From: Acidobacteriota bacterium
GTDB lineage: Bacteria; Acidobacteriota; Thermoanaerobaculia; Multivoradales; UBA5704
NCBI GenBank assembly: GCA_034666805.1
Contig: JAXDLD010000258.1
Coordinates: forward strand, 1 to 42,576
Direction of reading: 5' to 3'
DNA length: 42,576 nucleotides
Below are positions 3,070 through 42,576 of this stretch, one piece after another. Under the pieces are notes generated by a model. It saw only the letters and a program-made list of their open reading frames with translations, made no database searches and was not told where the DNA came from. Both the position numbers and the translations under genes were made by a program. Every line of letters begins with the position of its first letter. Position 1 is the stretch's first letter.

Positions 3070-3702
3070 CTAAACGCTTCGGAAGGACCGCAGGTCGTAC
3101 CCCAGCTCGGCGAAGAGGCGGTAGGTGGCGGGGAGGGGGAGCCCTACCACGTTGGTGTAGTTGCCGAAGACCTCCTCGACGAAGAGCGCCCCCAGCCCCT
3201 GCACGGCGTAGGAGCCGGCCTTGTCGAGCGGCTCCCCGGTCGTCACGTACCAGGCGATCTGCTCCGGGCTCATCGCCGCCATCCGCACCCGCGAGGTCTC
3301 GACCACCGCTGCCTGGCGCAGGTCGCGGCCGGCATGCCCCATCTCCCTCAAAGCCACGCCCGTGAGCACCGTGTGCTCGCGGCCGGCGATCCGGCCGAGC
3401 ATGCGCCGGGCGTCCTGCTCGTCCCGAGGCTTCCCCAGGAGGTCGCCGTCGAGGACGACGATCGTGTCGGCGGCGAGCACCAGCTCTCCGGGCTCGGTCC
3501 GGGCCGCCGCCTTCTCGCGGGACAGGCGCAGGACGTAGGCGCGCGGCTCCTCGCCCGGCAGCGGGGTCTCGTCCAGGTCGACCGGACGGACCGTGAAGGC
3601 GAGCCCGAGCCCGCCCAGGAGCTCCCGCCGCCGCGGTGAGGCGGAGGCGAGGACGAGGGCGGGGGGGGCCGAGAAATCGGGCAAGCGGGAGGGCGGGATC
3701 AA
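3070..3702 (-). CDS. maf: Maf-like nucleoside triphosphate pyrophosphatase (septum formation protein Maf)
   Basis: [35 protein letters not shown] and [27 protein letters not shown] are typical Maf blocks. The track start is TTG 3700-3702, overlapping the upstream gene's TGA (TTGA). An alternative TTG lies at 3682-3684. Confidence 0.85.
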
Positions 3703-6317
3703 GGGTAGTAGCCGCGGAGGGTCTTGGCCGTCAAGCCGGGCTTCGCCACCTTCACCTCTAAAGTGCGGTACTTGTCCTTCGCCGCCGCGCCGCCCTGGGT
3801 GGACTCGTAGGCGAGCAGGTACTGGCTCCGCAGGTCGCCCTCGACCTCCTTGTAGACCGAGTCGAGCTCCACCGCCTTCTCGATCAGGAAGTGTCTCCCC
3901 CCCGTCTCCTCGGCGAGCTTCTGGAGCTTCAGGCGGACGTCGGCGTCCTGGGTGGTGAGCCCGAGGCCGATCGTGTAGATGGTGACGCCGGTGCGGCGGG
4001 CGTACTCCAGGGCATCGGGGAAGGTGTAGCGGCTCTTGTCGTCCTTGCCGTCCGAGAGGAGGACGATCGCCCGCTTCCCCTTGATCCCGCCGAAGAGGTA
4101 GAGGGTGTAGACGAGGCTGTCGTAGAGCGCGGTGTTGCCGTCGGCGGTCAGGTTGGCGAGCCCGCCGGCCAGGACCTCATGGTTGTTGGTGAACTTGACC
4201 GCCAGGTTCGGCTTGTCGGCGAAGGTCACCACCGCCGCCCGGTCGCGGGGGGTGATCACCTTGTCGAAGAAGCGGAGCGCGCCCTCGACCGCCTCGTGGA
4301 GCGAGGTGTCCATGGAGCCCGAGGTGTCCAGGAGGATGCAGGCATAGATCGGCACGTCCTTGACGAGGTCGAAGCGCCGCACCTGCTGCTCGGCGCCGTC
4401 CTCGAAGACCTTGAAGTCCTTGGCTTCGAGACCCTGGACCGGCCGCCCCTTCTTGTCGACGACCGAGGTGTAGAGCTCGACCAGGTCGACCTGGACCTTC
4501 ACCCCCGGGTTCGGCGAGTTGACCAGCACCGTGTCTTCGGTCGAGTTGCCGCCATCCGCCAGATAGGCGACGGCGCGCACGTAGGTGACCTTGTCGCCCG
4601 GCGGCAGGACCATGGGCTGGGCGAAGGGGGGCTGGTAGAGAGTCGCGATCCGGGTCTCGTTCAGGTAGAACTCGACCCGTTCCAGGGTCTCCCCCTCCGG
4701 CACCTTGACCTCGGCGTTGGCGCGCAGGCTCTCGTGGTAGGTCTTCCCCGGCTGCGGCTCGAGCAGGCGGAGCGAGAAGCGGTGCGGGCCAGCGTTCAGG
4801 AACACCTCGTCCTGGGCCAGCTCCTCGCCGCCCGGTCCCTGGGCAACGGCCTTCAGCGAATGGATCTTCGGCTGCTCGCCGAGCGCCAGCTCGACGCTGT
4901 AGGGGGGCCGGGCCTTCGACAGGATCGGCTTGCCATTGAGGAGGAAGATGACGCGGGCGATCCCCTCACCCGTCGTCACCGCCTCGACCCGGGACTTGCC
5001 GGTCACCAGCCCCTCCGGCGGCGGCAGGAGCCGGATCGTCTGGTCGCCGGCGTGGAGGGAGGAGTTGGCCTCCTTGACCGGATCGCGGCCGGTCGCCCCC
5101 GGCGACGTGGGGGGGTTGGCCGGGGCGGCGGCGGTTACCTCGGAAGTCGGCGGGGTAATGGGGCCGGCCGGGACCTCGAGCTCGCGCTGGTCTCGAAAGT
5201 ACCGCTTCCCGCCCACGTCCTCGATCTTGACGATCAGGGTGTAGGGGCCGGGCCGCAGGTAGCGCTGGAAGATGAGGGGTAAGCGCCCCTCCCGGATCTG
5301 CGCCGCGGCCTCCTTGACCGGGAGGGTGAAGCGGTAGCGGAAGTGCTCGAAGAGCTCCTCCTTCCGGAGCACCTCGCCGTCGATGACGAAGTCGTAGGAC
5401 TCGAAGTCGCCCGTCTTGGCGAGCTTGACCTCGTCCTTGGGCACCGAGAGGAGACCCTGGACGACGGTGCGGCTGCCGTAGCGGCCGGGGAAGGTGACCG
5501 CGAGCTCGGCCGGGAAGGCGGCGGCGCCCTGGGGGAGGTCGGTCGAGTAGGCGGAGAAGGTGCTGAGCCACTCCTCGCTCGGATGGGGGGCGAGCTGGAC
5601 GCTCTTTTCGACCCGGGTCCAGTCGATCACGCTGCCGAGCGCGCTCAGGATCTCGGACCCCTGCGCGCAGGCCTCCTCGATCAGCTCCGGCCGCGGGCCC
5701 TCGGGGTAGCGGCCGCGGACGTCGAAGGAGAGGAGCGAGGTGATCCCCTGGCTCGGGTACCAGAGCCGCCAGGTGCTGCCGGCGGGCGCCACGAAGACCA
5801 GGCTGTAGCCGGTGCGCGCGAACTCGTTCTTCTCGAACGACCAGATCTCGAGCGGAAGGAACATCTCCGGGCAGTGCGACTTGACGACATGGGCCGGCTC
5901 GCCGTTCCACAGCATCATGCGCGCCCGGTCCTCGGTCAGGTTGCCGAACTTCTCCTTGGCGGCCCGTGCCCGCCCCTCCCATCTCTCCTCGAACTCGTTG
6001 ACCGCCGTCTGCGGGAAGGGGTCGCGCGCCTTCCAGAACTGGCGGACGAAGGCGTCCCGCTGGTAGTCCTGCTTCAAGGCGAGGAACGCGGCCTGCTCCT
6101 TGGCGCTCATGAGCGGACCCGCCAGGTCGACGAAGTCGCGGTGGCGCTGGGCGAGGTCGGCGGGGAGAGGGGGGAGCGGCTGGGCGTCCGCCGGTGTCGG
6201 CGCGGCGGCGGCAGGAGGCGCGGGTTTGGCGGCGTGGGCCGGAGACGCAAACGACGGCGAGGCCGCCGCAAGGGCCAGGAGGAGGAACAGCAAGGGCCGG
6301 CGGCTCGGGACCGACAT
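3699..6317 (-). CDS. secreted GWxTD-like / Ig-like repeat / VWFA-related Acidobacterial-domain protein, 872 aa
   Basis: Signal peptide [29 protein letters not shown], followed by an Ala/Pro linker. A GWxTD-like block reads [24 protein letters not shown]...[14 protein letters not shown]. The C-terminal VWA domain has an intact MIDAS motif DTSGSM, then TALYDS, LLSDGKD, and the tail RGYYP. Confidence 0.85.
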
Positions 6318-6336
6318 CGTCCGCCGATCCTACGCC

Positions 6337-6366
6337 CGGGGCGGGGGGAGGGGCAACCCCGCCCCG
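6337..6366 (-). terminator. GC-rich hairpin between the two VWA paralogues, a possible terminator or attenuator
   Basis: CGGGGCGGGG (6337-6346) pairs with CCCCGCCCCG (6357-6366) around a 10-nt loop. It lies 14 nt downstream of the stop of the 6380..9088 gene. No U-tract follows on the minus strand. Confidence 0.35.
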
Positions 6367-6379
6367 CTACCGGGCATCC

Positions 6380-9088
6380 CTACGGGTAGTACCCCCGGAT
6401 CGTCTTAACCTCCAGCCCGGACTGGTCGACCTTGAGATCCACGCTCCTGAAGCTCGTGTCCTCGCCGGCGTTGGTCGACTGGTAGGCGATCAGGTACTGG
6501 GAGCGCAGCTCCTTTTCGATCTCGGCGTAGATCGGCTTCAATTCCGTCGCCGTGGCGACGAAGAAGCTCCGGCCGCCGGTCTCCTCGGCGATCTTCGTCA
6601 GATGCTTCTTGTCGACGTCCTTGCCGAGGCCGATGGCATAGATCGTCACCCCCGCCCGCCGCGCGTACTCCATGGCGTCCTCGAAGGTGAAGCGGCTGCT
6701 CTCGTCCTTGCCGTCCGAGAGCAGGAGCATGGCCCGCTGCCCCTTGATGCCGTTGAAGTAGTAGAGGGTGAAGATGATGCTGTCGTAGAGGGCGGTGCCG
6801 CGCTCGGCCTTCAAGCCCGCCAGGCCGCCGGCGAGCGTCGTCACGTTGTTGGTGAACTTGACCGCCAGGTTCGGGTGGTCGTTGAAGGTGACGATCGTCG
6901 CCCGGTCCCTGGGCTTGACCGTCTGCTGGATGAACCCGAGGGCGGCCTGCTGGGTCTCCGGCAGGTTCCCCTCCATGGATGCCGAGATGTCGAGCGTGAT
7001 GGCGGTGTGGATGGGGAGGTCGTGGACCCGGTCGAAACGGGTGATCTGCTGCTTGACGTTGTCCTCGAACGGGGTGAAGTCCTTCTGGGTGAGCCCCTCG
7101 ACCGGGCGCCCCTTTTTGTCGAGCACCGAGGCGTAGAGCTCGACGTACTGGATGTTCAGGCGCTCCATCCCCTCCGGGGCGTTGACGAAGACGAGGTCCT
7201 CCGTCGAGGAGCCGTCGACCCCATAGGCGACCGCCCGCACGTAGGACGGAACGCCGCCCTTGGCGAGGAGGATGGGCTGCGTGTAGGGCGGCTGGTAGGC
7301 GGTCGCGACCAGGGTCTCGTTCAGGTAGAACTCCACCCGCTCGACCGCCTGCTCCTCCGGCACGTCGACGTCGGCCAGGGCGAGGAGGCTCTTCTCGTAG
7401 CGCTTGCCGCGCTGCGGCTCGACCAGGTGGACCGCGAAGCGGTGGCCGGCGGAGTTGATGAGGAGCTGGTCCTGGGTGAGGACCGCCCCCTTCTCGTCGT
7501 AGGCGATGGCGTCGAGCTTCCGCGTCCTGGGCACCGGCCCGAGGTCGAGCTCGACGCTGTAGGGGGCGACCTTCTTGGTGAGGATCGGCTTGCCGTCCAG
7601 GACGAAGGTGACCTTCTGGATGTCCTTGCCGGTCGCCAGGGTGTCGAAACGCTGCATCCCGGTGTGCAGCTCGCCCTGGGGGCGGATGATCTTGAGCGTC
7701 GTCTCGCCCGTGCGGAGCGCCTTGTTCGCCTCCGCGAGGATGCGCCGGCTCTCCTCGTCCAGGGGCGGCGGCGCGGTCGGGGCGACCCGGTCGGTCTCCG
7801 GAACCGTGATCTTCTCCTCCGAGCGGTAGAACTTGCCCGAGTTGACGTCCTCGGCCTTGATCACCAGGGTGTAGCTGCCGGGGCGCAGGTAGCGCTGGAA
7901 GACCAGGGGGATCTTCCCGTCCTGCACCTGGTTGGCGGGGAAGTCGAACTTGTAGCGGAAGCTGTCGAAGAGCTTCTTGTTCTGGATCACCTCGCCGGTC
8001 AGGAGCAGGTTGTAGGAGCGGGCGTCCCCGAGCTGCGCCTCGGCGATGTCCGCGGACGCCACCTGCATCAGGCCCTGGACCACCGTCCGCGCCTGGTAGC
8101 GGCCTGGGTACTCTAAAGTGAGCTTGGCCGGGAAGGTGATGGCCGACTCCGGCAGGTCGGTCGTGTAGGCGTTGAAAGTCTGCACCCACTCGGTGCTCGG
8201 CCCCTCGGGCCGCGACTCGAACTGCGCCTGGAGCATGCTGTAGCCCATCCGCTGCTGCAGGATCCAGCTGATGGCGCCGGCCAGCTTGTCGCCGTTGATG
8301 CAGCCGTCGGCGACCGCCTGGAGCGAGCGCTCGTCCGGGTTCGCGCTGTCCCTGAAGAGCTCGCCCAGCCCCTCGTTCGGCTCCCAGATCCGGTAGGGTC
8401 CGGCCCCCCAGCGCTGGGAGAAGACGACGAAGAACTCATAGCGCACGCGGTCGCTGTTGACGTAGTACCAGACCTCCGTCGGCCACAGGAGCTGGCAGTT
8501 GGAGACGATCTGGCCGTTGGGCTGCCCGTTCAAGAGCAGGATGCGGGCCCGGTCCTCCTTGATGTTCCCGAAGTGGGCCTTGGCCTCCTCGACCCGGGAG
8601 TCCCACGACTCGCGGAACGCGCTGTGGCCCCCCAGGTGGTACTTGTCCCGCACCTGCCAGAAGCGCTCGATGAAAGAGTCGCGCTGATAGTCCTTGTCGA
8701 GGAGGAGGAAGGTCGCCTTCTCCTCCGGAGTCATGAGGACGTCGACCTCGTCGAGCCAGGCCTTGTAGGTGTGCGGCAGGGCGGCCAGGGCCTTCTTCTG
8801 CTCCGCCCGGGAGAGCTTCCGCGGCTTGTCGCTCCCGGACTTCTTGGCCGGGGCCTTCGCCGCGGCGGCGGGCTTGGCATCCTTCGCATCCCCCTTCGCG
8901 GCGTCTGGAGCCGGAGCCGGAGGAGGGGGAGGAGCCGCGTTCGCCGGCGCTGGCGGGGATGCCGGTGCTGGGGCTGCCGGCGCGGCAATCGGTGGATCGG
9001 CCGCGGCGGGCAGGGCCAGGCAGAAAGACAGGAGGACGAGGACGAAGCAGGGGAGAAGGAGCGCGGTGCGGTGCAGATGAATCCTCAT
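6380..9088 (-). CDS. secreted GWxTD-like / VWFA-related Acidobacterial-domain protein, paralogue of 3699..6317, 902 aa
   Basis: Track ORF 6380..9361 trimmed to ATG 9086-9088 (MRIHLHRTALLLPCFVLVLLSFCLALPAAA, a signal peptide). It has the same architecture as the neighbour: Ala/Pro/Lys-rich linker, FIERFWQVRDKY...KEDRARILLLNGQP, MIDAS DISASM, TALYDS, LLSDGKD, and the end RGYYP. Confidence 0.85.
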   Translation of the reverse strand: MRIHLHRTALLLPCFVLVLLSFCLALPAAADPPIAAPAAPAPASPPAPANAAPPPPPAPAPDAAKGDAKDAKPAAAAKAPAKKSGSDKPRKLSRAEQKKALAALPHTYKAWLDEVDVLMTPEEKATFLLLDKDYQRDSFIERFWQVRDKYHLGGHSAFRESWDSRVEEAKAHFGNIKEDRARILLLNGQPNGQIVSNCQLLWPTEVWYYVNSDRVRYEFFVVFSQRWGAGPYRIWEPNEGLGELFRDSANPDERSLQAVADGCINGDKLAGAISWILQQRMGYSMLQAQFESRPEGPSTEWVQTFNAYTTDLPESAITFPAKLTLEYPGRYQARTVVQGLMQVASADIAEAQLGDARSYNLLLTGEVIQNKKLFDSFRYKFDFPANQVQDGKIPLVFQRYLRPGSYTLVIKAEDVNSGKFYRSEEKITVPETDRVAPTAPPPLDEESRRILAEANKALRTGETTLKIIRPQGELHTGMQRFDTLATGKDIQKVTFVLDGKPILTKKVAPYSVELDLGPVPRTRKLDAIAYDEKGAVLTQDQLLINSAGHRFAVHLVEPQRGKRYEKSLLALADVDVPEEQAVERVEFYLNETLVATAYQPPYTQPILLAKGGVPSYVRAVAYGVDGSSTEDLVFVNAPEGMERLNIQYVELYASVLDKKGRPVEGLTQKDFTPFEDNVKQQITRFDRVHDLPIHTAITLDISASMEGNLPETQQAALGFIQQTVKPRDRATIVTFNDHPNLAVKFTNNVTTLAGGLAGLKAERGTALYDSIIFTLYYFNGIKGQRAMLLLSDGKDESSRFTFEDAMEYARRAGVTIYAIGLGKDVDKKHLTKIAEETGGRSFFVATATELKPIYAEIEKELRSQYLIAYQSTNAGEDTSFRSVDLKVDQSGLEVKTIRGYYP

Positions 9089-9110
9089 AGCCGTATCTTT
9101 CCTCAACAAC

Positions 9111-9147
9111 GGGCCGGCGGACGCCATTCCGGCCCGCGCGTTACAAT
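9111..9147 (+). promoter_or_regulatory. candidate -10 element preceded by a hairpin, in the divergent VWA / cysteine-desulfurase intergenic region
   Basis: TACAAT at 9142-9147, 25 nt before ATG 9172. Just upstream, the inverted repeat GGGCCGG (9111-9117) / CCGGCCC (9129-9135) could be an operator. The -35 is weak. Pattern only. Confidence 0.3.
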
Positions 9148-9171
9148 ACTCCCTCCCGAGGCCTCCTGCCC

Positions 9172-10380
9172 ATGCCCCTCTCCACATCCGTCTATCTCGA
9201 TCACAACGCCACGACGCCCTTGGACCCGCGGGTGCGGGAGGCCATGCTTCCCTGGCTCGGCGAGCGCTGGGGCAACCCCTCGTCGGCCCACGGCTTCGGC
9301 CAGGCGGCGCGCAACGCGGTCGAGGAGGCGCGGGAGAAGGTCGCCGCCCTCCTCGGGGCACGGCCGCCGGAGATCGTCTTCACCGCCTCCGGCACCGAGG
9401 CCAACAACGCGGTTCTTTCCGACGTCGCGCGGCGCGCCGGGCATTCCGGGGAGCGGGGGCACCTGGTGATCTCCCGCCTGGAGCACCCCTCGATCCGCGA
9501 GTCGGCGGCGCGGCTCGAGGCCGCCGGGATGGCGGTGTCGCGGATCGCCCCCGGGCCGGACGGGGTGGTGCCGGCCGATGCCGTCCTCGCCGCGCTGCGT
9601 GACGACACCCGCCTCGTCTGCCTCATGCTCGCCAACAACGAGCTCGGCACCCTCCAGCCGGTGGCGGCGGTGGCCGCCGCCTGCCGCGAGCGCGGGGTGC
9701 CGGTCCTGACCGACGCGGTGCAGGCGGTGGGCAAGATCCCGGTCTCGGTTTCATCAGGTGCCGCCTTGGGGGTCGACTACCTCACCCTTGGGGCGCACAA
9801 GTTCGGCGGCCCCCTGGGCGCGGCGGCGCTCTGGGTGAGGAAGGGGGTGCCGCTCGACGGCTACCTCGTGGGCGGCAGCCAGGAGCGCCACCGGCGGGCG
9901 GGGACCGAGAACGTGGCGGCGATCGCCGGCTTAGGTCAAGCCGCGGCGCTCGCCCGGGCGGAGATCGCCGAGCGCGGCGCCTACCTCGCCTCCCTGCGCG
10001 ACCGTTTCGAGACCGCTCTCCGGGAGATTCCCGGCGCGATCGTCCACTGCGCCACCGCTCCGCGCCTCCCCAACACCTCGAACCTCGCCCTCCCCGGGGT
10101 GGACGCCCAGGCGCTCCTGATCCGGCTCGACCTCGCGGGCTACGCGGTGTCGACCGGGGCGGCCTGCGCCTCCGGGGCGGTCGAGCCGAGCCCGACCCTC
10201 CTCGCCCTCGGGCTCCCGGCGGCCGAGGCGCTCTCTTCGCTGCGGGTGAGCTTCGGCCCCGCCAACACACCGCAAGAGGTGGACGGCTTCTTGGCTGCCC
10301 TGGCCGGCGAGTCGGCGGCGCTCCGCGCCCTCGCGGCATCCCTGCCGGCCCCGCTGGTGGCCCCGCTGGTGACCCGATGA
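9172..10380 (+). CDS. cysteine desulfurase, NifS/IscS class
   Basis: YLDHNATTPLDPRV at the N-terminus, PLP-lysine context LGAHKFGGPLG, and active-site Cys loop STGAACASG. The stop overlaps the mnmA start (ATGA at 10377-10380). Confidence 0.9.
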   Translation: MPLSTSVYLDHNATTPLDPRVREAMLPWLGERWGNPSSAHGFGQAARNAVEEAREKVAALLGARPPEIVFTASGTEANNAVLSDVARRAGHSGERGHLVISRLEHPSIRESAARLEAAGMAVSRIAPGPDGVVPADAVLAALRDDTRLVCLMLANNELGTLQPVAAVAAACRERGVPVLTDAVQAVGKIPVSVSSGAALGVDYLTLGAHKFGGPLGAAALWVRKGVPLDGYLVGGSQERHRRAGTENVAAIAGLGQAAALARAEIAERGAYLASLRDRFETALREIPGAIVHCATAPRLPNTSNLALPGVDAQALLIRLDLAGYAVSTGAACASGAVEPSPTLLALGLPAAEALSSLRVSFGPANTPQEVDGFLAALAGESAALRALAASLPAPLVAPLVTR

Positions 10381-11494: not shown

Positions 11495-11613
11495 GGGGCC
11501 GCGGCTGCCCCTCTTCATCCGGTCGTCGGTTGCAAGGGGGCTGTGGCTGCCCCTCTTCATTCGGTCATCGGTTGTAAGGGGGCCGCGGCTGCCCCTCTTC
11601 ATTCCGTCAACGG
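11495..11613. repeat. tandem array of a 42-bp hairpin-containing unit, about 2.8 copies (array A)
   Basis: Units occupy 11495-11536, 11537-11578 and a partial 11579-~11613. The first is GGGGCCGCGGCTGCCCCTCTTCATCCGGTCGTCGGTTGCAAG. The array starts 6 nt after the mnmA stop, between convergent genes. It is related to the array at 33611-33829. Confidence 0.85.
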
Positions 11614-28289: not shown

Positions 28290-30778
<2,489 letters not shown>

Positions 30779-30782
<4 letters not shown>

Positions 30783-31354
30783 TCGAGGATCTCGGCGCGC
30801 AGCGTATGGCGAAGATAGATCCGCGCCTTGTCCCATTGCCGCTGCACCGTGCGCTCGCTCAATCCCTGGAGGGTCGCGATCTCGTTGAAGGTGAAGCCGC
30901 AGAAGAACTTGAGGTCGACGACGTGGGCGATCTCCGGCTCCACGGCGGCGAGATCGTCGAGCGCCTGGCCGAGCCGCGCCATCTCGTCGGCATCGTCCGG
31001 CGGGCCGCCGTCCCCGACGTCCTTGCCGTCGATCGAGGTGATCTCGAAGCCGCCGCCGCGCTTCCTCGCCTGGCGGCGACGGAGGCCGTCGATGATCAGG
31101 CCGCGCATGACCCGCGCCGCGTAGGCGAGGAACCGGGCGCGGTCGGGGAAGGCGACCCCCTCGCGCTCCGCGATGTCCAAATAGGCCTCGTGGAGGAGGC
31201 TCGTCACGCCGAGCGCGGCGCCTCCCCCTAAGCGCGCGAGCTCACGGCGGGCCAGCCCGCGGAGCTCGCGGTAGAGCGCCGAAAAGAGGGCCTCGGAAGC
31301 CTGGCCGTCGCCGCGATCGGCGGAGTGGATCAGAGTGGAGAGGGGGTGTTCCAC
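30779..31354 (-). CDS. ECF sigma factor of the Sigma70_ECF (TIGR02999-like) type, kinase-associated
   Basis: Track ORF 30779..31567; the start is proposed at GTG 31352-31354 (VEHPLSTLIHSADRGDGQASEALFSALYRELRGLARREL). LLHEAYLDI and VVDLKFFCGFTFNEIATLQGLSERTVQRQWDKARIYL match this family. The start is uncertain. Confidence 0.8.
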
Positions 31355-31461
31355 GGGTCTGACTTGAAGTATACGCCGATACCCTGCAGGTTCGTGCGGC
31401 GCGGAGCCGCTGGATTCTCGACGGGAGATGTGCTCTCCTGGACCCTCGAGGAGGGATAGGC

Positions 31462-32319
31462 GTGCTGAAACCTCGTACCGTTTTGCCAGCGATCGTCTTC
31501 GCGTGGCTCCTTCCGACGCTCGGCGCGCCGGCCGGCGCTGTGGCGAGCGCCTCGCCTCCGAGCGCATCGCCGCTGGTGATCGGCGAGACCTTCACGATCG
31601 CTTCCAAGATCCTGGGCGAGACCCGGCGCATCAACGTCTACCTCCCGCCCGCCTACGCCGAGTCTCCGAGCACGCGGCTCCCCGTGCTCTACATGCCCGA
31701 CGGCGGGATGGCGGAGGATTTCCTGCACGTGGCGGGGCTGGTCCAGGTCTCGACCGGCAACGGGACGATGCGGCCGTTCCTTTTAGTCGGCATCGAGAAC
31801 ACCGAGCGCCGTCGCGATCTCACCGGGCCCACCGAGAGCGAAGAAGACAAGAAGATCGCGCCCCGAGTGGGAGGGTCGGGGGCGTTTCGGGCGTTCCTGC
31901 GCCAGGAGCTCATGCCCCAGGTGAAGGCCCGGTACCGAACGACGAACGAAACCGCGATCGTCGGCGAGTCGCTCGCCGGACTGTTCGTGGTCGAGACGTT
32001 CTTCCTGGAGCCGGAGATGTTCGACACCTATATCGCGTTCGATCCCAGCCTGTGGTGGAACCACAAGAGGCTCTTGAACGACGCCGCGAAGCGCCTGGAG
32101 GGACGGCCGAAGCTCGAAAAGACGCTCTACTTCGCCAGCGGTGGCGACGGGATCATCGAGGACACCGATCGGCTGGCGGACATCCTCACCAAGAACGCGA
32201 CGCCGAGCCTTCACTGGCAGTACGTGAAGATGCCGGAGGAGAAGCACGCGACGATCTATCACCCGGCCGCGCTCAAGGCATTTCGCGCCTTGTTCCGGCC
32301 GAGCGCGAGCTCCCGATGA
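31462..32319 (+). CDS. secreted alpha/beta-hydrolase, putative esterase family (IroE/enterochelin-esterase-like)
   Basis: GTG start with GGAGGG 6 nt upstream and a signal peptide. INVYLPPAY, LPVLYMPDG and the nucleophile elbow GESLAG are present. Confidence 0.8.
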   Translation: MLKPRTVLPAIVFAWLLPTLGAPAGAVASASPPSASPLVIGETFTIASKILGETRRINVYLPPAYAESPSTRLPVLYMPDGGMAEDFLHVAGLVQVSTGNGTMRPFLLVGIENTERRRDLTGPTESEEDKKIAPRVGGSGAFRAFLRQELMPQVKARYRTTNETAIVGESLAGLFVVETFFLEPEMFDTYIAFDPSLWWNHKRLLNDAAKRLEGRPKLEKTLYFASGGDGIIEDTDRLADILTKNATPSLHWQYVKMPEEKHATIYHPAALKAFRALFRPSASSR

Positions 32320-33318: not shown

Positions 33319-33610
33319 GGTCGCAGATCGCCGGCTGGCTCGATCGCTACGAGCCGCGATGGGCGGAAGGGCTCCACCTGTTGGAGGCGATCGTCCGCTC
33401 GCCGTGGGCGCTCGCCACTCTGCTCGAAGCCGCCGGCCCGGGCGCCGAGGAGCAGGTCGGCCGAATCCGCGCGCGGCGCCAGCCGGCGTAAGGCGGTACC
33501 GATGCGGGGAAGGGCGCGCGCCGGCAGCTCCCTTCCCCGCGCCTTCACGCGGGTACCGCCGCCGAGCCCACGTCGATCGAGAGCAGAGGGGCCGGGACCG
33601 CCTGCCTGCA

Positions 33611-33829
33611 CACCGTGACGAATGGCGGAAGGGCAGCGACTGCCCCTGCGCACGCGGTGACGGATTGCAGAGGGGCAGTGACCGCCCCTGCGCACGCGGT
33701 GACGGATTGCAGAGGGGCAGCGACTGCCCCTGCGCACGCCGGGACAGATTGCAGAGGGGCGGCGACTGCCCCTGTGCACGCCGTGGCAGGTTGCGGAGGG
33801 GCAGCGACCGCCCCTGCTCACGCGGAGAC
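33611..33829. repeat. tandem array of a 42-bp hairpin-containing unit, about 5.2 copies (array B)
   Basis: Full units occupy 33630-33671, 33672-33713, 33714-33755 and 33756-33797, with partial units at both ends. The unit is GGGGCAGYGACYGCCCCTGCGCACGCGGTGACGGATTGCAGA. Each unit opens with a 7-bp stem and 3-nt loop (GGGGCAG-YGA-CYGCCCC). The array lies in a ~0.7-kb gene-free gap. Confidence 0.9.
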
Positions 33830-36053: not shown

Positions 36054-36090
36054 AAAAAGGGGTGGGCCCGCCGCACGGGGCGGCCCACCC
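36054..36090 (-). terminator. intrinsic (Rho-independent) terminator closing the CHAT/ECF operon
   Basis: On the minus strand a 12-bp GC stem (36060-36072 with 36079-90, one bulged C, 6-nt loop) is followed after one base by TTTTT (plus-strand AAAAA 36054-36058). It lies 10 nt after the TAG of the 86-aa gene. Confidence 0.8.
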
Positions 36091-36100
36091 GGACGAGGCT

Positions 36101-36361
36101 CTAGGCCGCGGTCCTGATCCCTTTGATCTTGTAGTTGTTCCCGTCCTTCACCAGCTCGACGGCAGCCTTGGGATGGTTGAAGGAGTGGGAGACGAGAGTC
36201 CCGTCGGCCAGCCTGAACTCGATGGTAAAGGCGGTTGTGGGATCGGAGCACTGGTGGCGCGACTGTTTCGGCAGCAGCTGCCAGTCATTGGTCTGCGCCT
36301 TGGCGCCTCCATTGGCGACTCTGTACTGGGTGTCCTGACCGGTTGAGTTGGAGACATCCAT
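36101..36361 (-). CDS. orphan small protein, 86 aa
   Basis: ATG 36359-36361 has GGGAGGG upstream. The composition is ordinary and non-shadow (MDVSNSTGQDTQYRVANGGAKAQTNDWQLLPKQSRHQCSDPTTAFTIEFRLADGTLVSHSFNHPKAAVELVKDGNNYKIKGIRTAA). There is no signal peptide. G+C is visibly lower than in the neighbours. Confidence 0.65.
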   Translation of the reverse strand: MDVSNSTGQDTQYRVANGGAKAQTNDWQLLPKQSRHQCSDPTTAFTIEFRLADGTLVSHSFNHPKAAVELVKDGNNYKIKGIRTAA

Positions 36362-36442
36362 CTTGGGTATCCCTCCCTTCGGTACGGCCCGCCACCAGGT
36401 GGATCCACCGGCGGAGGGCGGGTTAAGACCGCACGAGAACGT

Positions 36443-37408
36443 TCAGGGCCGCACGACCTGGAAGCGGGGGTACCCCACCGCCTCGGAGGCCCCTTCCGGG
36501 GTCACTCCCTTGAGCGTTACGAGGTAGCTCCCGTCGGCGAGGTCGCGCGCCGGAGGCCGGATCTTCAAGCGCGAGCCGGACGCCGGCGTGAGGCCGCTCC
36601 GCGTCCAGACCGCTTGTCCGTCCTCCTCCCGGCCGATCGACACCTCATAGGAGGAGTAGGGCTCTCCCTCTTCGAGCGTGAGTTGGATCTCGATCGGTTG
36701 ATCCGGGGAGACGATGTGGAGGACGTTCGGCGATTCCTCCTCGTCGCCGCGCGTCGTCATCGCCACTTGCAGCACGAGCACGGCGGCGGCTGGAGCTCTC
36801 CTCGATCGCGGCTTCTCTGCGCGCACCGGTGGCAGGGCTGGGGCGGCGGGGGCCGCCGGCTGCGGCGGGGTGCTCGGGGGATTCTGGGGTGAGATGGGAA
36901 GCGCCGGAGCCGGTGCCGGCGTGGTCCCCCGGAGCACGTCCGGCGGTGCGGCCTGGGCGATGGTCTGCGGCGCGCGCGGCTGGAGCGTCCGTTCCACCTG
37001 CCAGGCGAAGACGATCAGGCCGGCGAGGCCGGCAGCGATGGCGACGCGCACGGCGGGACGCGAGAGGAGACCCGGGCGCCGGAACGGCAGGACCGGCACC
37101 GGTGCGGGCCGGTCGGTCATCGCGGGGGCGGCGGGGGTGGCGGCGACGGCCACCGCCAGACTCCGGGCCCGGGTGAGGCGGACCCGGCCGCCCGGCGAGG
37201 CGGCGAGCCGGCGGGTGAGCGGCTCGCAGAGGGCGGGGGCGAGCTCGCCCCGGACGCACTCGTCGAGGAGCTCGGCCTCGGCCGCCTCGGCCAGCTCGAA
37301 GAGGTCTTCGTCGAGCAGCAGCCGCCGTTCCAGGCGGTCCGCTTCCTCCTCGGGCTGCTGTCCCAGGAGGTAGAGTCTCAGTTCCAGGTAGTCGCTCGTC
37401 TCGCTCAT
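36443..37408 (-). CDS. anti-sigma-factor-like single-pass membrane protein
   Basis: Track ORF 36443..37432 starts at TTG; I prefer ATG 37406-37408 (MSETSDYLELRLYLLGQQPEEEADRLERRLLLDEDLFELAEAAEAELLDECVRGEL). A TM helix VRVAIAAGLAGLIVFAW follows, then a Pro/Ala linker and a beta-rich ~110-aa C-terminal domain. No zf-HC2 motif is present. Confidence 0.7.
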   Translation of the reverse strand: MSETSDYLELRLYLLGQQPEEEADRLERRLLLDEDLFELAEAAEAELLDECVRGELAPALCEPLTRRLAASPGGRVRLTRARSLAVAVAATPAAPAMTDRPAPVPVLPFRRPGLLSRPAVRVAIAAGLAGLIVFAWQVERTLQPRAPQTIAQAAPPDVLRGTTPAPAPALPISPQNPPSTPPQPAAPAAPALPPVRAEKPRSRRAPAAAVLVLQVAMTTRGDEEESPNVLHIVSPDQPIEIQLTLEEGEPYSSYEVSIGREEDGQAVWTRSGLTPASGSRLKIRPPARDLADGSYLVTLKGVTPEGASEAVGYPRFQVVRP

Positions 37409-37470
37409 ATCACGGTCTCCCGCTCGTTCCAATGAGGAGTGTCACGAGCGATGAAAACGTTTCACCCCCG

Positions 37471-38082
37471 TCATCCCCGCCTTGCCTGCTCCAGGCAGAG
37501 CGCCAGGCAGTCCCCGAGTTGGCGGCGCACGCGGTGGACCCGGATGCGGAGCGCGTTCAAAGGCAGGCCGAGGGTCAGGGAGAGCCGCTGGCGGCTGCGG
37601 ATGCGGTCCTCGCCCTGGTGGTAGTCGAGGATGAGCTGGCGCTGATCGGCGGGGAGCTGGCCGAGACAGAAGCGGATACAACCGAGCCGCCGGTCCTCCG
37701 GCTCCTCCCCTTCCGGGGGCGAATAGGGGGGCCAATCGCCGCTCTCCTGGGCCTCGCGCTCTCGGGCGCGTTCGCGCAGAACCTCCTTGTGGAGCAGGTG
37801 GGCCACGCCGCAGAAGAAGCTGTAAGGGTCCTGGGACTGGATCGTCAGCCCCTCGGCCAGGCGCCGGGCGACCCGGTTGAAGGTCTCGTCCGCTAGCTCC
37901 TCGGGGAACTCGCAGCCCCGCCATTCGAACAGGCGCACGAGCCGGCGGCGGATGCTCTCGTAGTGTTCCCCGGCCCGGTCGCGGTCGGGGCCGAGCTGGG
38001 CGAGGAGACTCTCGAAGGCCTCCTGCGAGAGGCCGGAGCGCCCGGAGCGAAGGGAAGCTCCGGGCCGGCGGCCGCCGCTCAC
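37471..38082 (-). CDS. ECF-type sigma factor, Cys-rich, translationally coupled to the CHAT gene
   Basis: Lies inside track ORF 37471..38673. There is no ATG; GTG 38080-38082 overlaps the CHAT TGA (GTGA). Region 2-like: ELADETFNRVARRL...DPYSFFCGVAHLLHKEVLR. Region 4 HTH: LPADQRQLILDYHQGE...LGLPLNALRIRVHRVRRQL. Confidence 0.75.
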   Translation of the reverse strand: MSGGRRPGASLRSGRSGLSQEAFESLLAQLGPDRDRAGEHYESIRRRLVRLFEWRGCEFPEELADETFNRVARRLAEGLTIQSQDPYSFFCGVAHLLHKEVLRERAREREAQESGDWPPYSPPEGEEPEDRRLGCIRFCLGQLPADQRQLILDYHQGEDRIRSRQRLSLTLGLPLNALRIRVHRVRRQLGDCLALCLEQARRG

Positions 38083-41000
38083 CGCCAATCCCCTTCCAGG
38101 GTGAAGCCGGCCCAGAAGTAGGGTTGGGCCGAGCGCTTCTCGCCCAGCATGGCGAGCTGGGCCTGGCGCAGGGCCGCCGCCGGGCGCTGGCCCTCCTTCA
38201 GCATGCCCCGGTAGAACCGCTGCATCAGCTCCGAGGTCGCGCGGTCCTCGACGCTCCACAGGCTGGCCAGGACCCGTGCCGCCCCGGCGTGCATGAAGCC
38301 GCGGGTCAAGCCGATCAACCCTTCGCCCCGGATCTCCTTGCCGAGAGCGGTCTGGCAGGCCGAGAGCACCACGAGGTCGGCGTGGAGCTCGAGCCGATAG
38401 ATGTCGCTGAGCAAGAGGAGCCCCTTCTGCGGCTGCCCTTTCTCGTCGACCAGGGAGAGCACGAGACCGGAGAGCTCCGGGTGCTGGCTGTCGATGCAGC
38501 CGTGGGTGGCGAAGTGCACCAGCCGGTAGCGGGCGAGGTCGCCGCTGGTCGCCTTCTGGAGCGAGGCGTCGAAGTCGAGCGCCACCAGCCGGCGCTCCGC
38601 CGGCACGAGCTTGGCGATCTCCTCCGCTTCGAGCCGCGAGTATCGCAACCGGGCGAAGCTCGCGGAGTTGCAATCGCGGTCGCCCCTGCGCGGCTCACCG
38701 GGCAGGACGCGCTGGGCGAGGGCCGGCGGCGCTCCGGCGACGGCGGGCACGTGGCCTTTCGGCACCCGCTCGTCCCGGCTCTGGAAGACCGGGTCGGCGA
38801 GCACGGCCAGGGTCAGGGGCGGCTCCTGGCGCCCGGCCCACTGCTGGCGCAGCACGGCGAGCACCGAGGCCGAGGGGAGGCTCACGATCTCGTGCCGCAC
38901 GACGAGAGGCGGCGAGCCGGCGGCGTCCGGGGCGGGCAGGGCCGCGAAGGGAACGTACTGCAAGGCGCCATCACTCACCACCAGCAGACGGCGCTCGGCG
39001 AGCAGCCCGGCGGCCGGTCCGAGAACCAGGAGGGAGAGCTGCCGGGCGGCCTCCGCTGCCTCGACGTCGGCGCGCTTCCCGTCCCGCAGGTGAGCCTTAA
39101 GCCCGTTGTAGAAGCGCCGGGCCACCTCTTCGATCTCCTTCCTGGGCGGCAGGGCGAAGCTCGTGACGGTCGCCCCTGTGACCGCCCAGAGATAGCTCCG
39201 CTCGTCCCCCAGCGCGTACTCGAGGAGGAGAGTCCCGTCGTCGAGGAGCGCCTGGATCTCGGGGAGAGCCAGCGGCTTGGGCGCGGTCAAGGCGGCGTAG
39301 CGCGGGCTGCTCGCCCGCAGGACCGCCTCGACCTGCTGGTACTCCTCGATGGCCGCGTTCAGCTCCCGGTTCGCGGTCTCGAGGGCCGCGGGGTCGGGTT
39401 GCGTCTCGCTCAGCAGCCACGACCGGCGGCGCCCCGCCGTCGACACCGCGTCGCTCACCCGGCTCTCGCGCTCGAGGAGCGCCGGCGGGAGCCCCCGGCG
39501 CAGGTCGGCGCCCGAGATGTTGAGGATCTCGAGCAGGCTCCTCGCCCGCGCCTGCTCGCTCGCCGCCAGGGCCGCGGCAGCATAGCCGCCCTCCGGATGG
39601 GCGGTGTGGAGGGCCATCAGGGTATCGATTTCGAGCGCGTAGTAATCCTCTTTGGAGGCGAGGAAGACGGCACGGAGATCGGGGGAGACGACCCGGGTAC
39701 GCAGCGACTCGACGGTGCGGATGGCGTCCTCGATCTCGGCCCGGGCAGCGTCGAGGTCGCCGCGATCCCGCGCCAGCCGGGCGAGGGTCAGGGTGACGTT
39801 GGCCGCCCGGCTCAAGTCCTCATGGCTGCGGCTGATCTCGCGGGCGCGCCGGAGTTCGGCCTCCGCCTCGTCGAGCTGGTGGAGCGCGCGATGGGCGGCG
39901 CCCATCGCGTGCAGGGCGGCGGCCTCGACCCCGCTGTTGCCGGCGGCGAGCGCCAGGGCCCGGCGGCTCTCCGCGAGCGCGGCCTCCGGCCGGCCCTGGC
40001 TGACGTCGAGAAAGCCGAGGTTGTTGAGCGCCGGTGCCTCGGCCGACCGGCTGTCGTTTTTTTCCCGGGCGAGCCGGACCGCCTCTTCATAGGCCTTCCG
40101 CGCCGAGCGGGGGTCCTCGAGCCGCTGGTAGGCGAGACCGATGTTGTTGAGGGTCCGCGCCTCCTTCGGGCTGTCTTTCAGCTTGCGGTCGAGATCCCGG
40201 GCCTGCTGGTAGTAGCCGAGGGCCTTGTCCCAGTCTCCCAGCGAGTCATAGAGCTCGCCCAGGTTGTTGAGCGCCGCTGCCTGGCGAAGGTCGTCTTTCG
40301 TCTTCCGCGCCAGGTCGAGCCCCTGAAGGTAACAGTCCAAGGCCGCTTGGCGATCGGAGAGGTCGGTGTGGGCTGACCCCAGGTTCACCAGAAGGTTGGC
40401 CTCGGAGGCAGTGTCGTGGAGGGTGTGGGCGAGCGCCAGGGCGGCTGTCAGCCGCTCTACGGCCGCCCGCGGCTGGCCGAGGTCGATCAGGAGGCTCCCG
40501 AGGTTGTTCAAGACGTCCACCTTGAGGCGCTGGGCATCGTCCCCTGCGCCGGCGAGCAGCGGCAGGGCCTCCTCGAAGTGTTGCCGTGCCTCCCCTTGGC
40601 GGTCGAGCCTCTTTTCGATCGACGCGAGCTGGTTCAAAGCGTCCGCCAGGTTGCCCTTCGCCCCGATCGCCCGCCACAGGTCTACCGCCTGCTGGAGGTC
40701 GCCGGCGGCCCTCTCCGGGTCCCGGAGCTGGCTGCGTGCGGTCCCCAGCTGGTAGAGAGTCGCGGCCTCGTGCCCGCGCTCGCCCAGCCGATGCCAGAGG
40801 ACCAGGGCCCGCTCGCGTTTCGCAATCTGCTGGCGTAATGAATCCTCGACGTCCTCGACCTTCTTACTCATGAGATCGACCGCATCCTGGGTGAGGCGCA
40901 CCGCCTCGACCCGGGTGCGGTCGTCGTCACCGGCCTGGCGCAGCTCGACCCGGATGCGATAGCGGCCGGGCTTCGCTCGGGGGTCCGACCGCACTTCTAG

Positions 41001-41366
41001 CTGATGGCTACCAGCCTGCACGGCGATCGCCGCCAGGTCTTCGTCCTCGTGGGGCCGGTTGGGTCCGTCGACGTGAACCACCTCCTGGCCCGCCGGGTCG
41101 AGCAGGGTGACCACGACGTCGATCCCCTCCTCCTCCACGATGGCGCGCAGGAGCTGTCCCGCGGCGAGGGAGAACGGGTAACGGTGGCTCTCGCCCCCGG
41201 CGAGCTCGCGCGTCAGCTCCTGGCCGGGGATGAGCTCCGGGGAGGTGCCGCCGTGGGCCGGGCCTCCCGGCTGGAGGGCGACGGCGGCCAGCAGGACGAG
41301 GAGCGCCCGCCAGCGCAGGATCGGCGCCGGGAGGCGGCTGGGGGGGTGGAGTCGGCTCGTCCGCAT
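38079..41366 (-). CDS. exported TPR-repeat CHAT-domain (caspase-like) protease with an N-terminal PPC-like beta-sandwich
   Basis: Track ORF 38079..41402 starts at GTG; the in-frame ATG 41364-41366 gives MRTSRLHPPSRLPAPILRWRALLVLLAAVALQPGGPAHG, a signal peptide or anchor. Many TPRs are present (NNLGSLL, NLGSAH, NNLGELY, NNIGLAY, NNLGFL). The C-terminal CHAT domain has HFATHG (His codon 38502-38504) and VLSACQT (Cys codon 38355-38357). Confidence 0.9.
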   Translation of the reverse strand: MRTSRLHPPSRLPAPILRWRALLVLLAAVALQPGGPAHGGTSPELIPGQELTRELAGGESHRYPFSLAAGQLLRAIVEEEGIDVVVTLLDPAGQEVVHVDGPNRPHEDEDLAAIAVQAGSHQLEVRSDPRAKPGRYRIRVELRQAGDDDRTRVEAVRLTQDAVDLMSKKVEDVEDSLRQQIAKRERALVLWHRLGERGHEAATLYQLGTARSQLRDPERAAGDLQQAVDLWRAIGAKGNLADALNQLASIEKRLDRQGEARQHFEEALPLLAGAGDDAQRLKVDVLNNLGSLLIDLGQPRAAVERLTAALALAHTLHDTASEANLLVNLGSAHTDLSDRQAALDCYLQGLDLARKTKDDLRQAAALNNLGELYDSLGDWDKALGYYQQARDLDRKLKDSPKEARTLNNIGLAYQRLEDPRSARKAYEEAVRLAREKNDSRSAEAPALNNLGFLDVSQGRPEAALAESRRALALAAGNSGVEAAALHAMGAAHRALHQLDEAEAELRRAREISRSHEDLSRAANVTLTLARLARDRGDLDAARAEIEDAIRTVESLRTRVVSPDLRAVFLASKEDYYALEIDTLMALHTAHPEGGYAAAALAASEQARARSLLEILNISGADLRRGLPPALLERESRVSDAVSTAGRRRSWLLSETQPDPAALETANRELNAAIEEYQQVEAVLRASSPRYAALTAPKPLALPEIQALLDDGTLLLEYALGDERSYLWAVTGATVTSFALPPRKEIEEVARRFYNGLKAHLRDGKRADVEAAEAARQLSLLVLGPAAGLLAERRLLVVSDGALQYVPFAALPAPDAAGSPPLVVRHEIVSLPSASVLAVLRQQWAGRQEPPLTLAVLADPVFQSRDERVPKGHVPAVAGAPPALAQRVLPGEPRRGDRDCNSASFARLRYSRLEAEEIAKLVPAERRLVALDFDASLQKATSGDLARYRLVHFATHGCIDSQHPELSGLVLSLVDEKGQPQKGLLLLSDIYRLELHADLVVLSACQTALGKEIRGEGLIGLTRGFMHAGAARVLASLWSVEDRATSELMQRFYRGMLKEGQRPAAALRQAQLAMLGEKRSAQPYFWAGFTLEGDWR

Positions 41367-41515
41367 GGATGCTTTCCCGCGCGTGACCGTTCCGGACTGC
41401 ACCCGGCGCGGGGGACCGGGGTGCTGGGGAAGATGTGGTTTCCCCTAACATTGTATCTTTTCGACAACGCCACCTTCCACCCTGAAGGGAAATCGGCGAC
41501 ATTGTCAGGACGAAG

Positions 41516-42576
41516 ATGGCGAGCGAAGATGGACAGCAAGAGGGAGATTCCGAGGTCCGCCGGGTCCTCCACTGCGACATGGACTGCTTCTACGCCGCGG
41601 TCCACATGCGCGACGACCCGACGCTCGCCGGCAAGCCGGTGGTGATCGGCGGCGAGCCGGAGGGGCGCGGGGTGGTGGCGGCGGCGAGCTACGAGGCGCG
41701 GCGCTTCGGCATCCACTCGGCAATGCCCTCCTCCCGCGCCAAGCGGCTCTGCCCGCAGGTGATCTTCCTCCCGCCCGACTTCCGGCGCTACAGGAAGGAG
41801 TCGGAGAAGATCTTCGCCATCTACAGAGAGCTCACTCCCATCGTCCAGACCGTGTCGCTCGACGAGGCCTACCTCGATCTCACCGGCCGGCTGGAGGCCT
41901 TCGGCACCGCCACCCGGGTGGCGCGCGAGATCCGCCGCCGGGTGCGGGAGGAGCGCGGGCTCACCGTCTCGGTGGGGGTCGGCCCCAACCGGCTGATCGC
42001 CAAGATCGCCTCGGACTTCCACAAGCCGGACGGCCTGACCGTGGTGCCGCCGCAGAAGGTCCTGGCCTTCCTCGCTCCCCTGCCGGTGCGGCGGCTCCAC
42101 GGGGTGGGCCCGGCGACCGAGAAGGTCCTTTCCGGGATGGGGATCGCGACCGTCGCCGACCTGCGGGCCGTGCCAGTCGAAGAGCTGACCGGCCGCTTCG
42201 GCCGCCACGGGCGCACCCTCCACGAGTTCGCCCACGGTATCGACCTACGCCCGGTCGAGGCCCACCAGGAGACCAAGAGCCTCTCGACCGAGAGCACCTA
42301 CCGGGTCGACCTCGTCACCCTGGAGCAGATGGAGGCGGAGCTCGACGGCATGGGCGCCCAGGTGGCGGCGGCGCTCGGCAAGAACGGCCTCGCCGCCTGC
42401 ACCATCACCTTGAAGGTGCGCTACGACGACTTCACGACCGTCACCCGCTCGCGCACCCTCTCCTACCCGGTGACCGACGCGCCGACGATCACCGCCTGCG
42501 CCAAGGACCTCCTGCGCCGGACCGAGGCCGCCCGCCGCCCCGTCCGCCTCCTGGGGGTCGGCGCCTCGACCCTCGT
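41516..42576 (+). CDS. dinB: DNA polymerase IV (Y-family), 3'-truncated by the window end
   Basis: Not in the track because no stop is reached. ATG 41516 has AGGA 5 nt upstream. VLHCDMDCFYAAVHMRDDP, SLDEAYLDLTG, SVGVGPNRLIAKIASDFHKPDG, HGVGPATEKVL and the final RLLGVGAS are canonical DinB blocks. Confidence 0.9.
   Translation, partial: MASEDGQQEGDSEVRRVLHCDMDCFYAAVHMRDDPTLAGKPVVIGGEPEGRGVVAAASYEARRFGIHSAMPSSRAKRLCPQVIFLPPDFRRYRKESEKIFAIYRELTPIVQTVSLDEAYLDLTGRLEAFGTATRVAREIRRRVREERGLTVSVGVGPNRLIAKIASDFHKPDGLTVVPPQKVLAFLAPLPVRRLHGVGPATEKVLSGMGIATVADLRAVPVEELTGRFGRHGRTLHEFAHGIDLRPVEAHQETKSLSTESTYRVDLVTLEQMEAELDGMGAQVAAALGKNGLAACTITLKVRYDDFTTVTRSRTLSYPVTDAPTITACAKDLLRRTEAARRPVRLLGVGASTL

Follow-up and report, generated by a model that had tools for sequence, protein, structure and literature searches.

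An acidobacterial operon that joins a divergent ECF-like sigma factor and its predicted anti-sigma factor to a caspase-family protease with export signals

Sigma factors with extracytoplasmic function (ECF), paired with anti-sigma factors, give bacteria one of their main ways of sensing the environment, and which enzyme serves as the site-1 protease is a frequent gap. We know of almost no signalling systems that have been characterized in the Acidobacteriota, a dominant but little-studied soil phylum. A 42 576-nucleotide stretch of DNA from an Acidobacteriota bacterium (Thermoanaerobaculia; contig JAXDLD010000258.1 of assembly GCA_034666805.1, positions 1–42 576 of the forward strand; the whole stretch is called the window here) carries four minus-strand open reading frames (ORFs) at 36101–41402. 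In order of transcription, they encode a protein with PPC-like, TPR and CHAT domains (gene 1), an ECF-like sigma factor (gene 2), a predicted membrane anti-sigma factor (gene 3) and a protein of 86 residues (gene 4). Does the first of these proteins control the second by cutting the third? Judged from its sequences, the cassette combines an ECF sigma and anti-sigma pair with a protease of the caspase family that is exported and has a gene of its own. We tentatively favour, at a little short of an even chance, ECF signalling in which this operon-encoded protease acts as a signal-gated site-1 protease that makes a putative cut in the anti-sigma factor on its periplasmic side. A literature search of a limited library retrieved no published description of the acidobacterial cassette. 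An earlier, sequence-only reading of the window had seen in it a possible CRISPR-independent counterpart of the type III-E CRISPR protease–sigma switch; taken as a whole, that interpretation is partly supported.

All four ORFs lie co-oriented on the minus strand where they had been placed. The stop codon of gene 1 (TGA) and the start codon of gene 2 (GTG) overlap in the four bases GTGA (38079–38082), as already noted in the sequence-only reading and read directly from the letters, and gene 2 is predicted from this arrangement to be translationally coupled to gene 1. We ran a profile of the sigma factor against one genome per species and obtained 80 loci, all from Acidobacteriota (Thermoanaerobaculia, Holophagales, Blastocatellia/Pyrinomonadaceae and Vicinamibacterales). 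In 74/80 loci the sigma gene is immediately preceded, on the same strand, by the CHAT gene, the four-base stop/start overlap between the two is found in 59/72, and the N-terminal anti-sigma domain is encoded downstream of the sigma gene in 71/80. The adjacency and overlap of CHAT and ECF genes first seen in the window are therefore conserved in Acidobacteriota. Protease and anti-sigma factor are encoded by separate genes in all 80 loci, including two (L053 and L072) in which the same three genes occur in the permuted order sigma / anti-sigma / CHAT. Genes for the protease, the ECF sigma factor and the anti-sigma factor thus form an operon that is conserved in several classes of Acidobacteriota and stay together even when permuted.

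The protease assignment of gene 1 is carried by a full-length match to the Pfam CHAT family (PF12770, clan CD; E = 2e-69; 234.7 bits, with a curated cut-off of 24; profile positions 2–289 of 289), preceded by eight TPR_12 stretches (E = 7.5e-59). The PPC-like domain is matched weakly, from below threshold to threshold, in 6/8 orthologs tested (best E = 3.3e-6). The longest ORF spans 38079–41402 from a GTG at 41402, and the true start is likely to be the ATG at 41366. At the N-terminus a positively charged n-region is followed by a hydrophobic stretch in 54/54 orthologs, and several orthologs have canonical lipoboxes (e.g. L-A-G-C); because every ortholog begins in this way, the protease is predicted to be exported, through Sec or as a lipoprotein, and to be periplasmic. 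The low Cys content of the mature protein was also considered as a sign of export and was set aside, since a cytoplasmic kinase encoded in the window is equally Cys-poor. The catalytic His (HFATHG) and Cys (VLSACQT) stand at the codons named in the sequence-only reading and show no exception among 55/55 orthologs, so that the dyad is intact; the domain architecture and export proposed there were likewise borne out across the orthologs. Conservation along the protein peaks at the dyad and its adjoining motifs (column identity 0.8–0.88) and is lowest in the TPR region. The reading frame of the CHAT gene is interrupted in four contigs of metagenome-assembled genomes (L002, L008, L014 and L061), and also in L001; assembly errors are a possible cause.

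A family profile of gene 2 aligns with Mycobacterium tuberculosis SigE from sigma2 to the end of sigma4 (E = 0.002), and the protein has conserved region-2-like and region-4-like blocks, with sigma2 and sigma4 only, and at 203 residues has the size of an ECF sigma factor (about 200). The ECF assignment made earlier is upheld by this match, though the protein stays under every curated cut-off: Sigma70_r4_2 gives 16.7 bits versus 25.7 with no region 2 match in Pfam, and in NCBIfam TIGR02937 gives 15.9 versus 42.9 and TIGR02989 gives 28.3 versus 124.6. Gene 2 is thus predicted to belong to a real but divergent branch of ECF-like sigma factors, with more than 1000 homologs, mostly from metagenome-assembled genomes of Thermoanaerobaculia. 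The family is also rich in Cys (3%, compared with 0.2–1% in neighbouring proteins): six are conserved (C57, C91, C135, C139, C192 and C196), with CxxxC pairs, two in all, flanking region 4. They may form a site for metal binding or redox chemistry, which would be unusual for an ECF sigma factor.

The gene 3 protein of the window has no family match in the domain scan; 17/26 of its orthologs match zf-HC2 (PF13490; best E = 1.4e-7), and there is a weak alignment with the M. tuberculosis anti-sigma factor RslA (3hug_B). The AlphaFold2 (AF2) model has a helical N-terminal domain (residues 1–90, predicted local distance difference test score (pLDDT) above 90), a transmembrane (TM) helix at 118–141, a disordered Pro/Ala-rich linker and an immunoglobulin (Ig)-like beta-sandwich at 209–319; this is the anatomy of helical N-terminus, single TM helix and beta-rich C-terminal domain that had been read from the sequence. 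One hydrophobic segment, at approximately residues 105–140, is found in most of 69 orthologs. The Ig-like domain is predicted to lie in the same compartment as the protease because positive residues precede the TM helix. At the positions aligned with the HxxxCxxC zinc motif of the zinc-binding anti-sigma (ZAS) subgroup, the protein of the window has RRLAASPGGR, and neither His nor Cys is conserved there. By these criteria gene 3 would encode a single-pass anti-sigma factor of class I (zf-HC2) type that lacks the zinc ligands and is predicted to bind sigma. Its family comprises 516 representative clusters at E <= 1e-30. A Foldseek search with the whole model was dominated by generic Ig-like folds and left the helical N-terminal domain uninformed.

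Outside the cytoplasm, gene 3 evolves fast: identity is 35–40% in its periplasmic part, as in gene 4 and the TPR region, compared with about 80% in the adjoining fumarase. A single residue of this periplasmic part is invariant, Arg220, which is conserved in 67/67 genome orthologs and in 22/22 more distant metagenome orthologs (89/89). In the AF2 model it ends the first strand of the Ig-like domain, at the edge of a low-pLDDT loop (220–224). The protease has a possible counterpart in Asp1041, 37 residues past the catalytic Cys, in an invariant column of the CHAT alignment (D284). From its LWxVxD motif, and not from an alignment, we tentatively take this Asp to be at the position that binds the P1 Arg in separase. 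Arg220 in the putative substrate and Asp1041 in the protease are a candidate cleavage site and a candidate matching pocket. Separase, a clan CD relative, cuts strictly after Arg, and an invariant pocket Asp binds the P1 Arg (PMC10317155). In Csx29, the TPR-CHAT protease of type III-E systems, the residue aligned with Asp1041 is Ser, and cleavage is not after Arg (PMC10028731).

How would such a switch work? At rest, the anti-sigma domain would keep the sigma factor at the membrane. A periplasmic cue would act through the TPR/PPC part of the protease to activate CHAT, which would cut the anti-sigma factor on the periplasmic side, most likely past Arg220, where the Ig-like domain begins. The remaining stub would pass to an RseP-type site-2 protease and to cytoplasmic proteases, and the freed sigma factor would transcribe its regulon, possibly including its own operon through a promoter of the form TGGAAY-N17-19-TAnAAT. 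A role like that of a site-1 protease, exerted on gene 3 from the periplasm as the sequence-only reading had proposed, is what this predicted anatomy, with its conserved operon and exported protease, fits best. The narrower proposal, that a trans-acting periplasmic Arg-specific caspase-family protease is the dedicated site-1 protease of the anti-sigma factor and cuts after Arg220, is possible, though we hold it to be less likely than not. The features of the cassette are collected in Table 1.

Table 1. Features of the cassette and their coordinates in the window; AF2, AlphaFold2.
Feature	Position	Strand	Basis
Gene 1, cysteine protease (PPC-TPR-CHAT) with predicted export, 1095 aa counted from the ATG	38079..41366	-	Pfam CHAT, TPR_12, weak PPC, ortholog signal peptides
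Gene 1, signal peptide	41247-41366 (approx.)	-	
Gene 1, PPC-like domain	40887-41246 (approx.)	-	
Gene 1, TPR region	39057-40859 (approx.)	-	
Gene 1, CHAT domain	38082-39053 (approx.)	-	
Catalytic His955 in HFATHG	38502..38504	-	55/55 orthologs
Catalytic Cys1004 in VLSACQT	38355..38357	-	55/55 orthologs
Asp1041 in LWxVxD, candidate S1-pocket residue for basic P1	38244..38246	-	Invariant column, codon checked
Gene 2, divergent Cys-rich ECF-like sigma, 203 aa	37471..38082	-	SigE profile match, GTG overlapping gene 1 TGA
Gene 3, predicted single-pass anti-sigma, 321 aa	36443..37408	-	Ortholog zf-HC2 matches, AF2 model
Gene 3, cytoplasmic anti-sigma domain	37139-37408 (approx.)	-	
Gene 3, TM helix	36986-37057 (approx.)	-	
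Gene 3, disordered Pro/Ala-rich linker	36785-36985 (approx.)	-	
Gene 3, periplasmic Ig-like domain	36446-36784 (approx.)	-	
Arg220 of gene 3, candidate scissile site, motif hxhxLxxxxR↓G/S	36749..36751	-	Invariant across orthologs
Gene 4, 86-aa cytoplasmic eight-strand beta-sandwich, accessory operon member	36101..36361	-	AF2, family in other loci
Terminator-like G+C-rich hairpin, 12 pairs, one bulge, then CUUUUUCUCC	36054..36090	-	After last stop codon
Promoter-like motif TGGAA-N19-TACAAT	41450..41479	-	Upstream of gene 1, conserved in relatives

Several observations weigh against periplasmic cleavage by the gene 1 protease. Most of the loci are flanked by dinB and fumC and form one syntenic clade, so the 80 loci are not independent; independent support comes from a dozen distant or permuted loci that retain the trio outside the dinB/fumC synteny. 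Seen from the CHAT side, 71 metagenome loci that encode a close relative of the CHAT domain could be assessed, and only 30 of them have the sigma gene (nearly all of these 30 also have the anti-sigma gene). Because 41/71 such loci are without this sigma factor, the protease family has other jobs, and some of the sigma-less relatives share the PPC-TPR-CHAT build. Stop/start overlaps are common in operons and are no proof of a shared pathway. The ORF scan of the window revealed no gene for a site-2 protease, the equivalence of Asp1041 and the separase Asp is drawn from a motif and not from an alignment, and the invariance of Arg220 could be structural or due to ligand binding instead. On the other side, the CHAT gene is missing from one locus (L017, 5706–8374), and dinB there abuts the promoter and the sigma gene; its anti-sigma frame breaks directly after the conserved LRGAEP, i.e. 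just past the Arg, in the Ig-like domain. This hints at joint decay of the CHAT gene and the anti-sigma factor, in favour of a link between them; the frameshift may be a long-read assembly error.

In one alternative the protease is the output of the system: an ordinary sigma/anti-sigma envelope sensor would chiefly induce the co-transcribed, secreted CHAT protease, which acts on other periplasmic or surface proteins, while the Ig-like domain senses the cue or a housekeeping protease cuts the anti-sigma factor. The sigma-less relatives of the protease point to sigma-independent functions, as this alternative would have it; ECF operons often include the main target genes, and with one apparent promoter for the whole operon, induction would raise the level of the protease too. 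It would, however, be unusual for a target gene to stand first and to be translationally coupled to the sigma gene, the trio is kept together in the two loci with permuted order, and the pairing of an invariant Arg220 with an invariant Asp1041 is left without explanation. We regard this alternative as unlikely, although it is the one that survives best.

A different possibility is that TPR-CHAT binds the anti-sigma factor and does not cut it. As RseB does on RseA, it would dock on the Ig-like domain and keep a different site-1 protease away from it, until it is itself drawn off by a ligand or substrate, and its catalytic activity would serve another purpose, for example self-processing. TPR arrays bind proteins, their region varies more than any other in this protein, as expected for a surface that meets partners or ligands, and in DdvA of Myxococcus xanthus a bulky TPR-CHAT sterically blocks RseP (PMC11506125). 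That conservation is highest around the dyad argues that catalysis is central, and the cassette encodes no other protease; we therefore consider pure binding improbable. Most improbable of all is that the mechanism we favour serves to sense phages or other invaders at the envelope, a role proposed for DdvA, and controls defence genes located at other sites of the genome: DdvA/DdvS does control a CBASS-CRISPR island (PMC11506125), protease-gated sigma factors recur in type III CRISPR loci (PMC10028731), and sequence change is rapid in gene 4, in the TPR region and in the periplasmic part of gene 3, but the cassette sits in a stable dinB–fumC housekeeping block and not in a defence island, the PADLOC matches are unspecific, and neither a cas gene nor an array is nearby.

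The closest precedent for the cassette appears, by analogy, to be DdvA/DdvS of M. xanthus, which the sequence-only reading had not mentioned and which is much closer than type III-E. DdvA is a transmembrane anti-sigma factor with a zinc-binding anti-sigma domain (ZASD) and a fused periplasmic TPR-CHAT, and its partner is the ECF sigma factor DdvS; the TPR-CHAT part blocks RseP, and self-cleavage by DdvA as its own site-1 protease, ahead of RseP, has been proposed, not shown (PMC11506125). Both systems have a TPR-CHAT with a His-Cys dyad in the periplasm (a predicted location here), a single-pass class-I-type anti-sigma factor and an ECF sigma factor. In DdvA the ZASD, TM helix and TPR-CHAT form one polypeptide, whereas here TPR-CHAT is separate and bears a signal peptide as well as an additional PPC domain. 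Because it is a separate exported protein, the protease would act in trans and not by autoproteolysis. The anti-sigma factor of the cassette has an Ig-like periplasmic domain of its own and is without the CHCC zinc site of DdvA, and the setting also differs: a defence island in Myxococcus, a housekeeping context in Acidobacteriota. Single-sequence and profile searches found no sequence-level match to a DdvA chain.

Other known systems share parts of this layout. Classical regulated intramembrane proteolysis of anti-sigma factors (DegS/RseA/RseP/sigmaE and PrsW/RsiW; summarized in PMC11506125 and PMC10028731) likewise involves a single-pass anti-sigma factor with a cytoplasmic sigma-binding domain and a first cut in the periplasm, as proposed here. 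The classical site-1 protease is a serine protease or metalloprotease encoded elsewhere, whereas the candidate described here is a clan CD cysteine protease inside the sigma operon. For ECF54, a conserved context of CHAT, subtilase and carboxypeptidase genes is given in PMC8999054, which cites the ECF classifications. This too is a bioinformatic association of ECF sigma and CHAT genes interpreted as proteolytic control, also omitted from the sequence-only reading; ECF54 is, however, described as actinobacterial and as having no anti-sigma factor (PMC7826278, PMC8999054), unlike the acidobacterial cassette with its canonical anti-sigma factor. Finally, EACC2-caspase conflict systems contain an ECF sigma factor together with a DUF1822 TPR protein (PMC8195603), so that a protease of caspase fold has genes for a TPR protein and for an ECF sigma factor as neighbours there too. 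They are cytoplasmic, associated with multi-domain effectors and predicted to work through autopeptidase activation, and no TM/Ig-like anti-sigma factor is described for them.

The likeness to the type III-E Csx29/Csx30/Csx31/RpoE system reduces to an analogy, since inhibitor, CHAT domain, compartment and genomic context all differ. What is shared is that a TPR-CHAT protease and an ECF-type sigma factor are encoded together and that proteolysis of a sigma inhibitor is (here, by proposal) the switch. Craspase is cytoplasmic and RNA-guided, with Csx29 activated by Cas7-11 (PMC10028731), whereas the protease of the cassette is predicted to be periplasmic. Csx30 is a soluble cytoplasmic two-domain protein of 565 residues, to which the single-pass membrane protein of gene 3 appears unrelated: a PDB profile search and Foldseek return no Csx30 chain for it. 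Gene 4 likewise has no significant match in the PDB, a library for which the presence of Csx31 was not established, so neither protein shows a sequence or fold match to Csx30 or Csx31. The CHAT family profile reaches Csx29 only marginally (E of about 1.5), and a single-sequence search for a special kinship of the CHAT domain to Csx29, DdvA or separase was empty even at E <= 10. Type III-E loci have Cas7-11 and an array; here an array search of the window and a domain scan of 24 of its ORFs found neither an array nor a cas domain, in line with the sequence-only reading, and the flanks are mostly dinB and fumC. PADLOC defence models gave generic TPR matches in the window and nothing specific.

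What would follow if the cassette worked as we favour? A candidate site-1 protease of the caspase/separase family lies here inside the operon itself, and the only comparable case is the DdvA fusion. Under the narrower proposal of a cut after Arg220, no clan CD protease would have been shown earlier to control a sigma factor from beyond the cytoplasm, and the cassette would be a genetically split, testable version of the autoproteolysis proposed for DdvA. Because protease and putative substrate are separate proteins, a direct mix-and-cut test is possible, and the cassette offers two residues to mutate, an Arg predicted to be scissile and an Asp predicted to set specificity. It is also abundant in soil Acidobacteriota, as the numbers of sigma homologs (>1000) and anti-sigma clusters (516) indicate.

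The last gene of the operon had been labelled an orphan. Close homologs of gene 4 found by word search number only eight, but an iterative search places members of its fast-evolving family downstream of gene 3 in 30/64 loci, and the label no longer holds. Its AF2 model is a small eight-strand sandwich (pLDDT 85.5). A hairpin and a U-run do follow gene 4, as the sequence-only reading had it; to call them a textbook terminator is an overstatement, because the stem is bulged, the run has only five U, the terminator scanner does not list the hairpin, and its fold (-26.6 kcal/mol; z-score -0.79 against shuffles) is not significant at this G+C content.

A single promoter appears, from the sequence, to drive the whole operon. 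The family consensus TGGAAY-N17-19-TAnAAT, also seen in the alignment of intergenic regions, has one match in the window against 0.02 expected. In 30 loci a single copy stands at the corresponding spot 5' of the CHAT gene, one further match (L066) lies at another place, and the locus without a CHAT gene (L017) has a TGGAC variant with one mismatch directly 5' of the sigma gene. The -35 element resembles the GGAAC of ECF promoters and the -10 element resembles TATAAT; either this sigma factor or the housekeeping one may read the promoter. Between promoter and gene, the 5' leader of the operon (41380–41450, minus strand) has a conserved hairpin CTCCGG...CCGGAGCG in an alignment of 37 intergenic regions, and in most relatives the start codon is preceded by the conserved block AGCCGCCCAGA..GAAGA.AGGATGAG; the leader of the window itself is more divergent. 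The leader could be a regulatory RNA structure. Neither the leader nor the window as a whole gave a match in Rfam.

Beside the sigma-less PPC-TPR-CHAT genes of two other loci (L104, 5093–7165, and L143, 5177–7279, both minus strand) lies a convergent ORF of approximately 700 residues, the N-terminus of which (AYELAFFIHGDEEVATRIV...) resembles sigma region 2; it may be a different, fused regulator of the same protease family. In the window, the gene for DNA polymerase IV (dinB, IMS family; 41516–42576, plus strand) diverges from gene 1. It is divergent from the operon in 57/65 loci, and in L053 it abuts the sigma gene itself. A functional link to dinB was considered and rejected: since fumC on the other flank is equally conserved, the adjacency reflects block synteny and not regulation.

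A second, unrelated ECF module is found at 28290–31567 (minus strand), where a PF07638-type ECF sigma gene (30779–31567, minus strand) overlaps the start of a gene for a Ser/Thr kinase that has an extended array of TPRs (28290–30836); sigma–kinase pairing of this type is already known. Tandem 42-bp repeats occur at 33583–33829 and 11495–11613 (5 and 2.8 copies, respectively), each with a GGGGCAGCGACTGCCCC hairpin core; they have no spacers and are REP-like intergenic repeats, not a CRISPR array. At 3699–9361 (minus strand), two adjacent large paralogs of 872 and 993 residues each combine a bacterial Ig domain with a C-terminal von Willebrand A domain.

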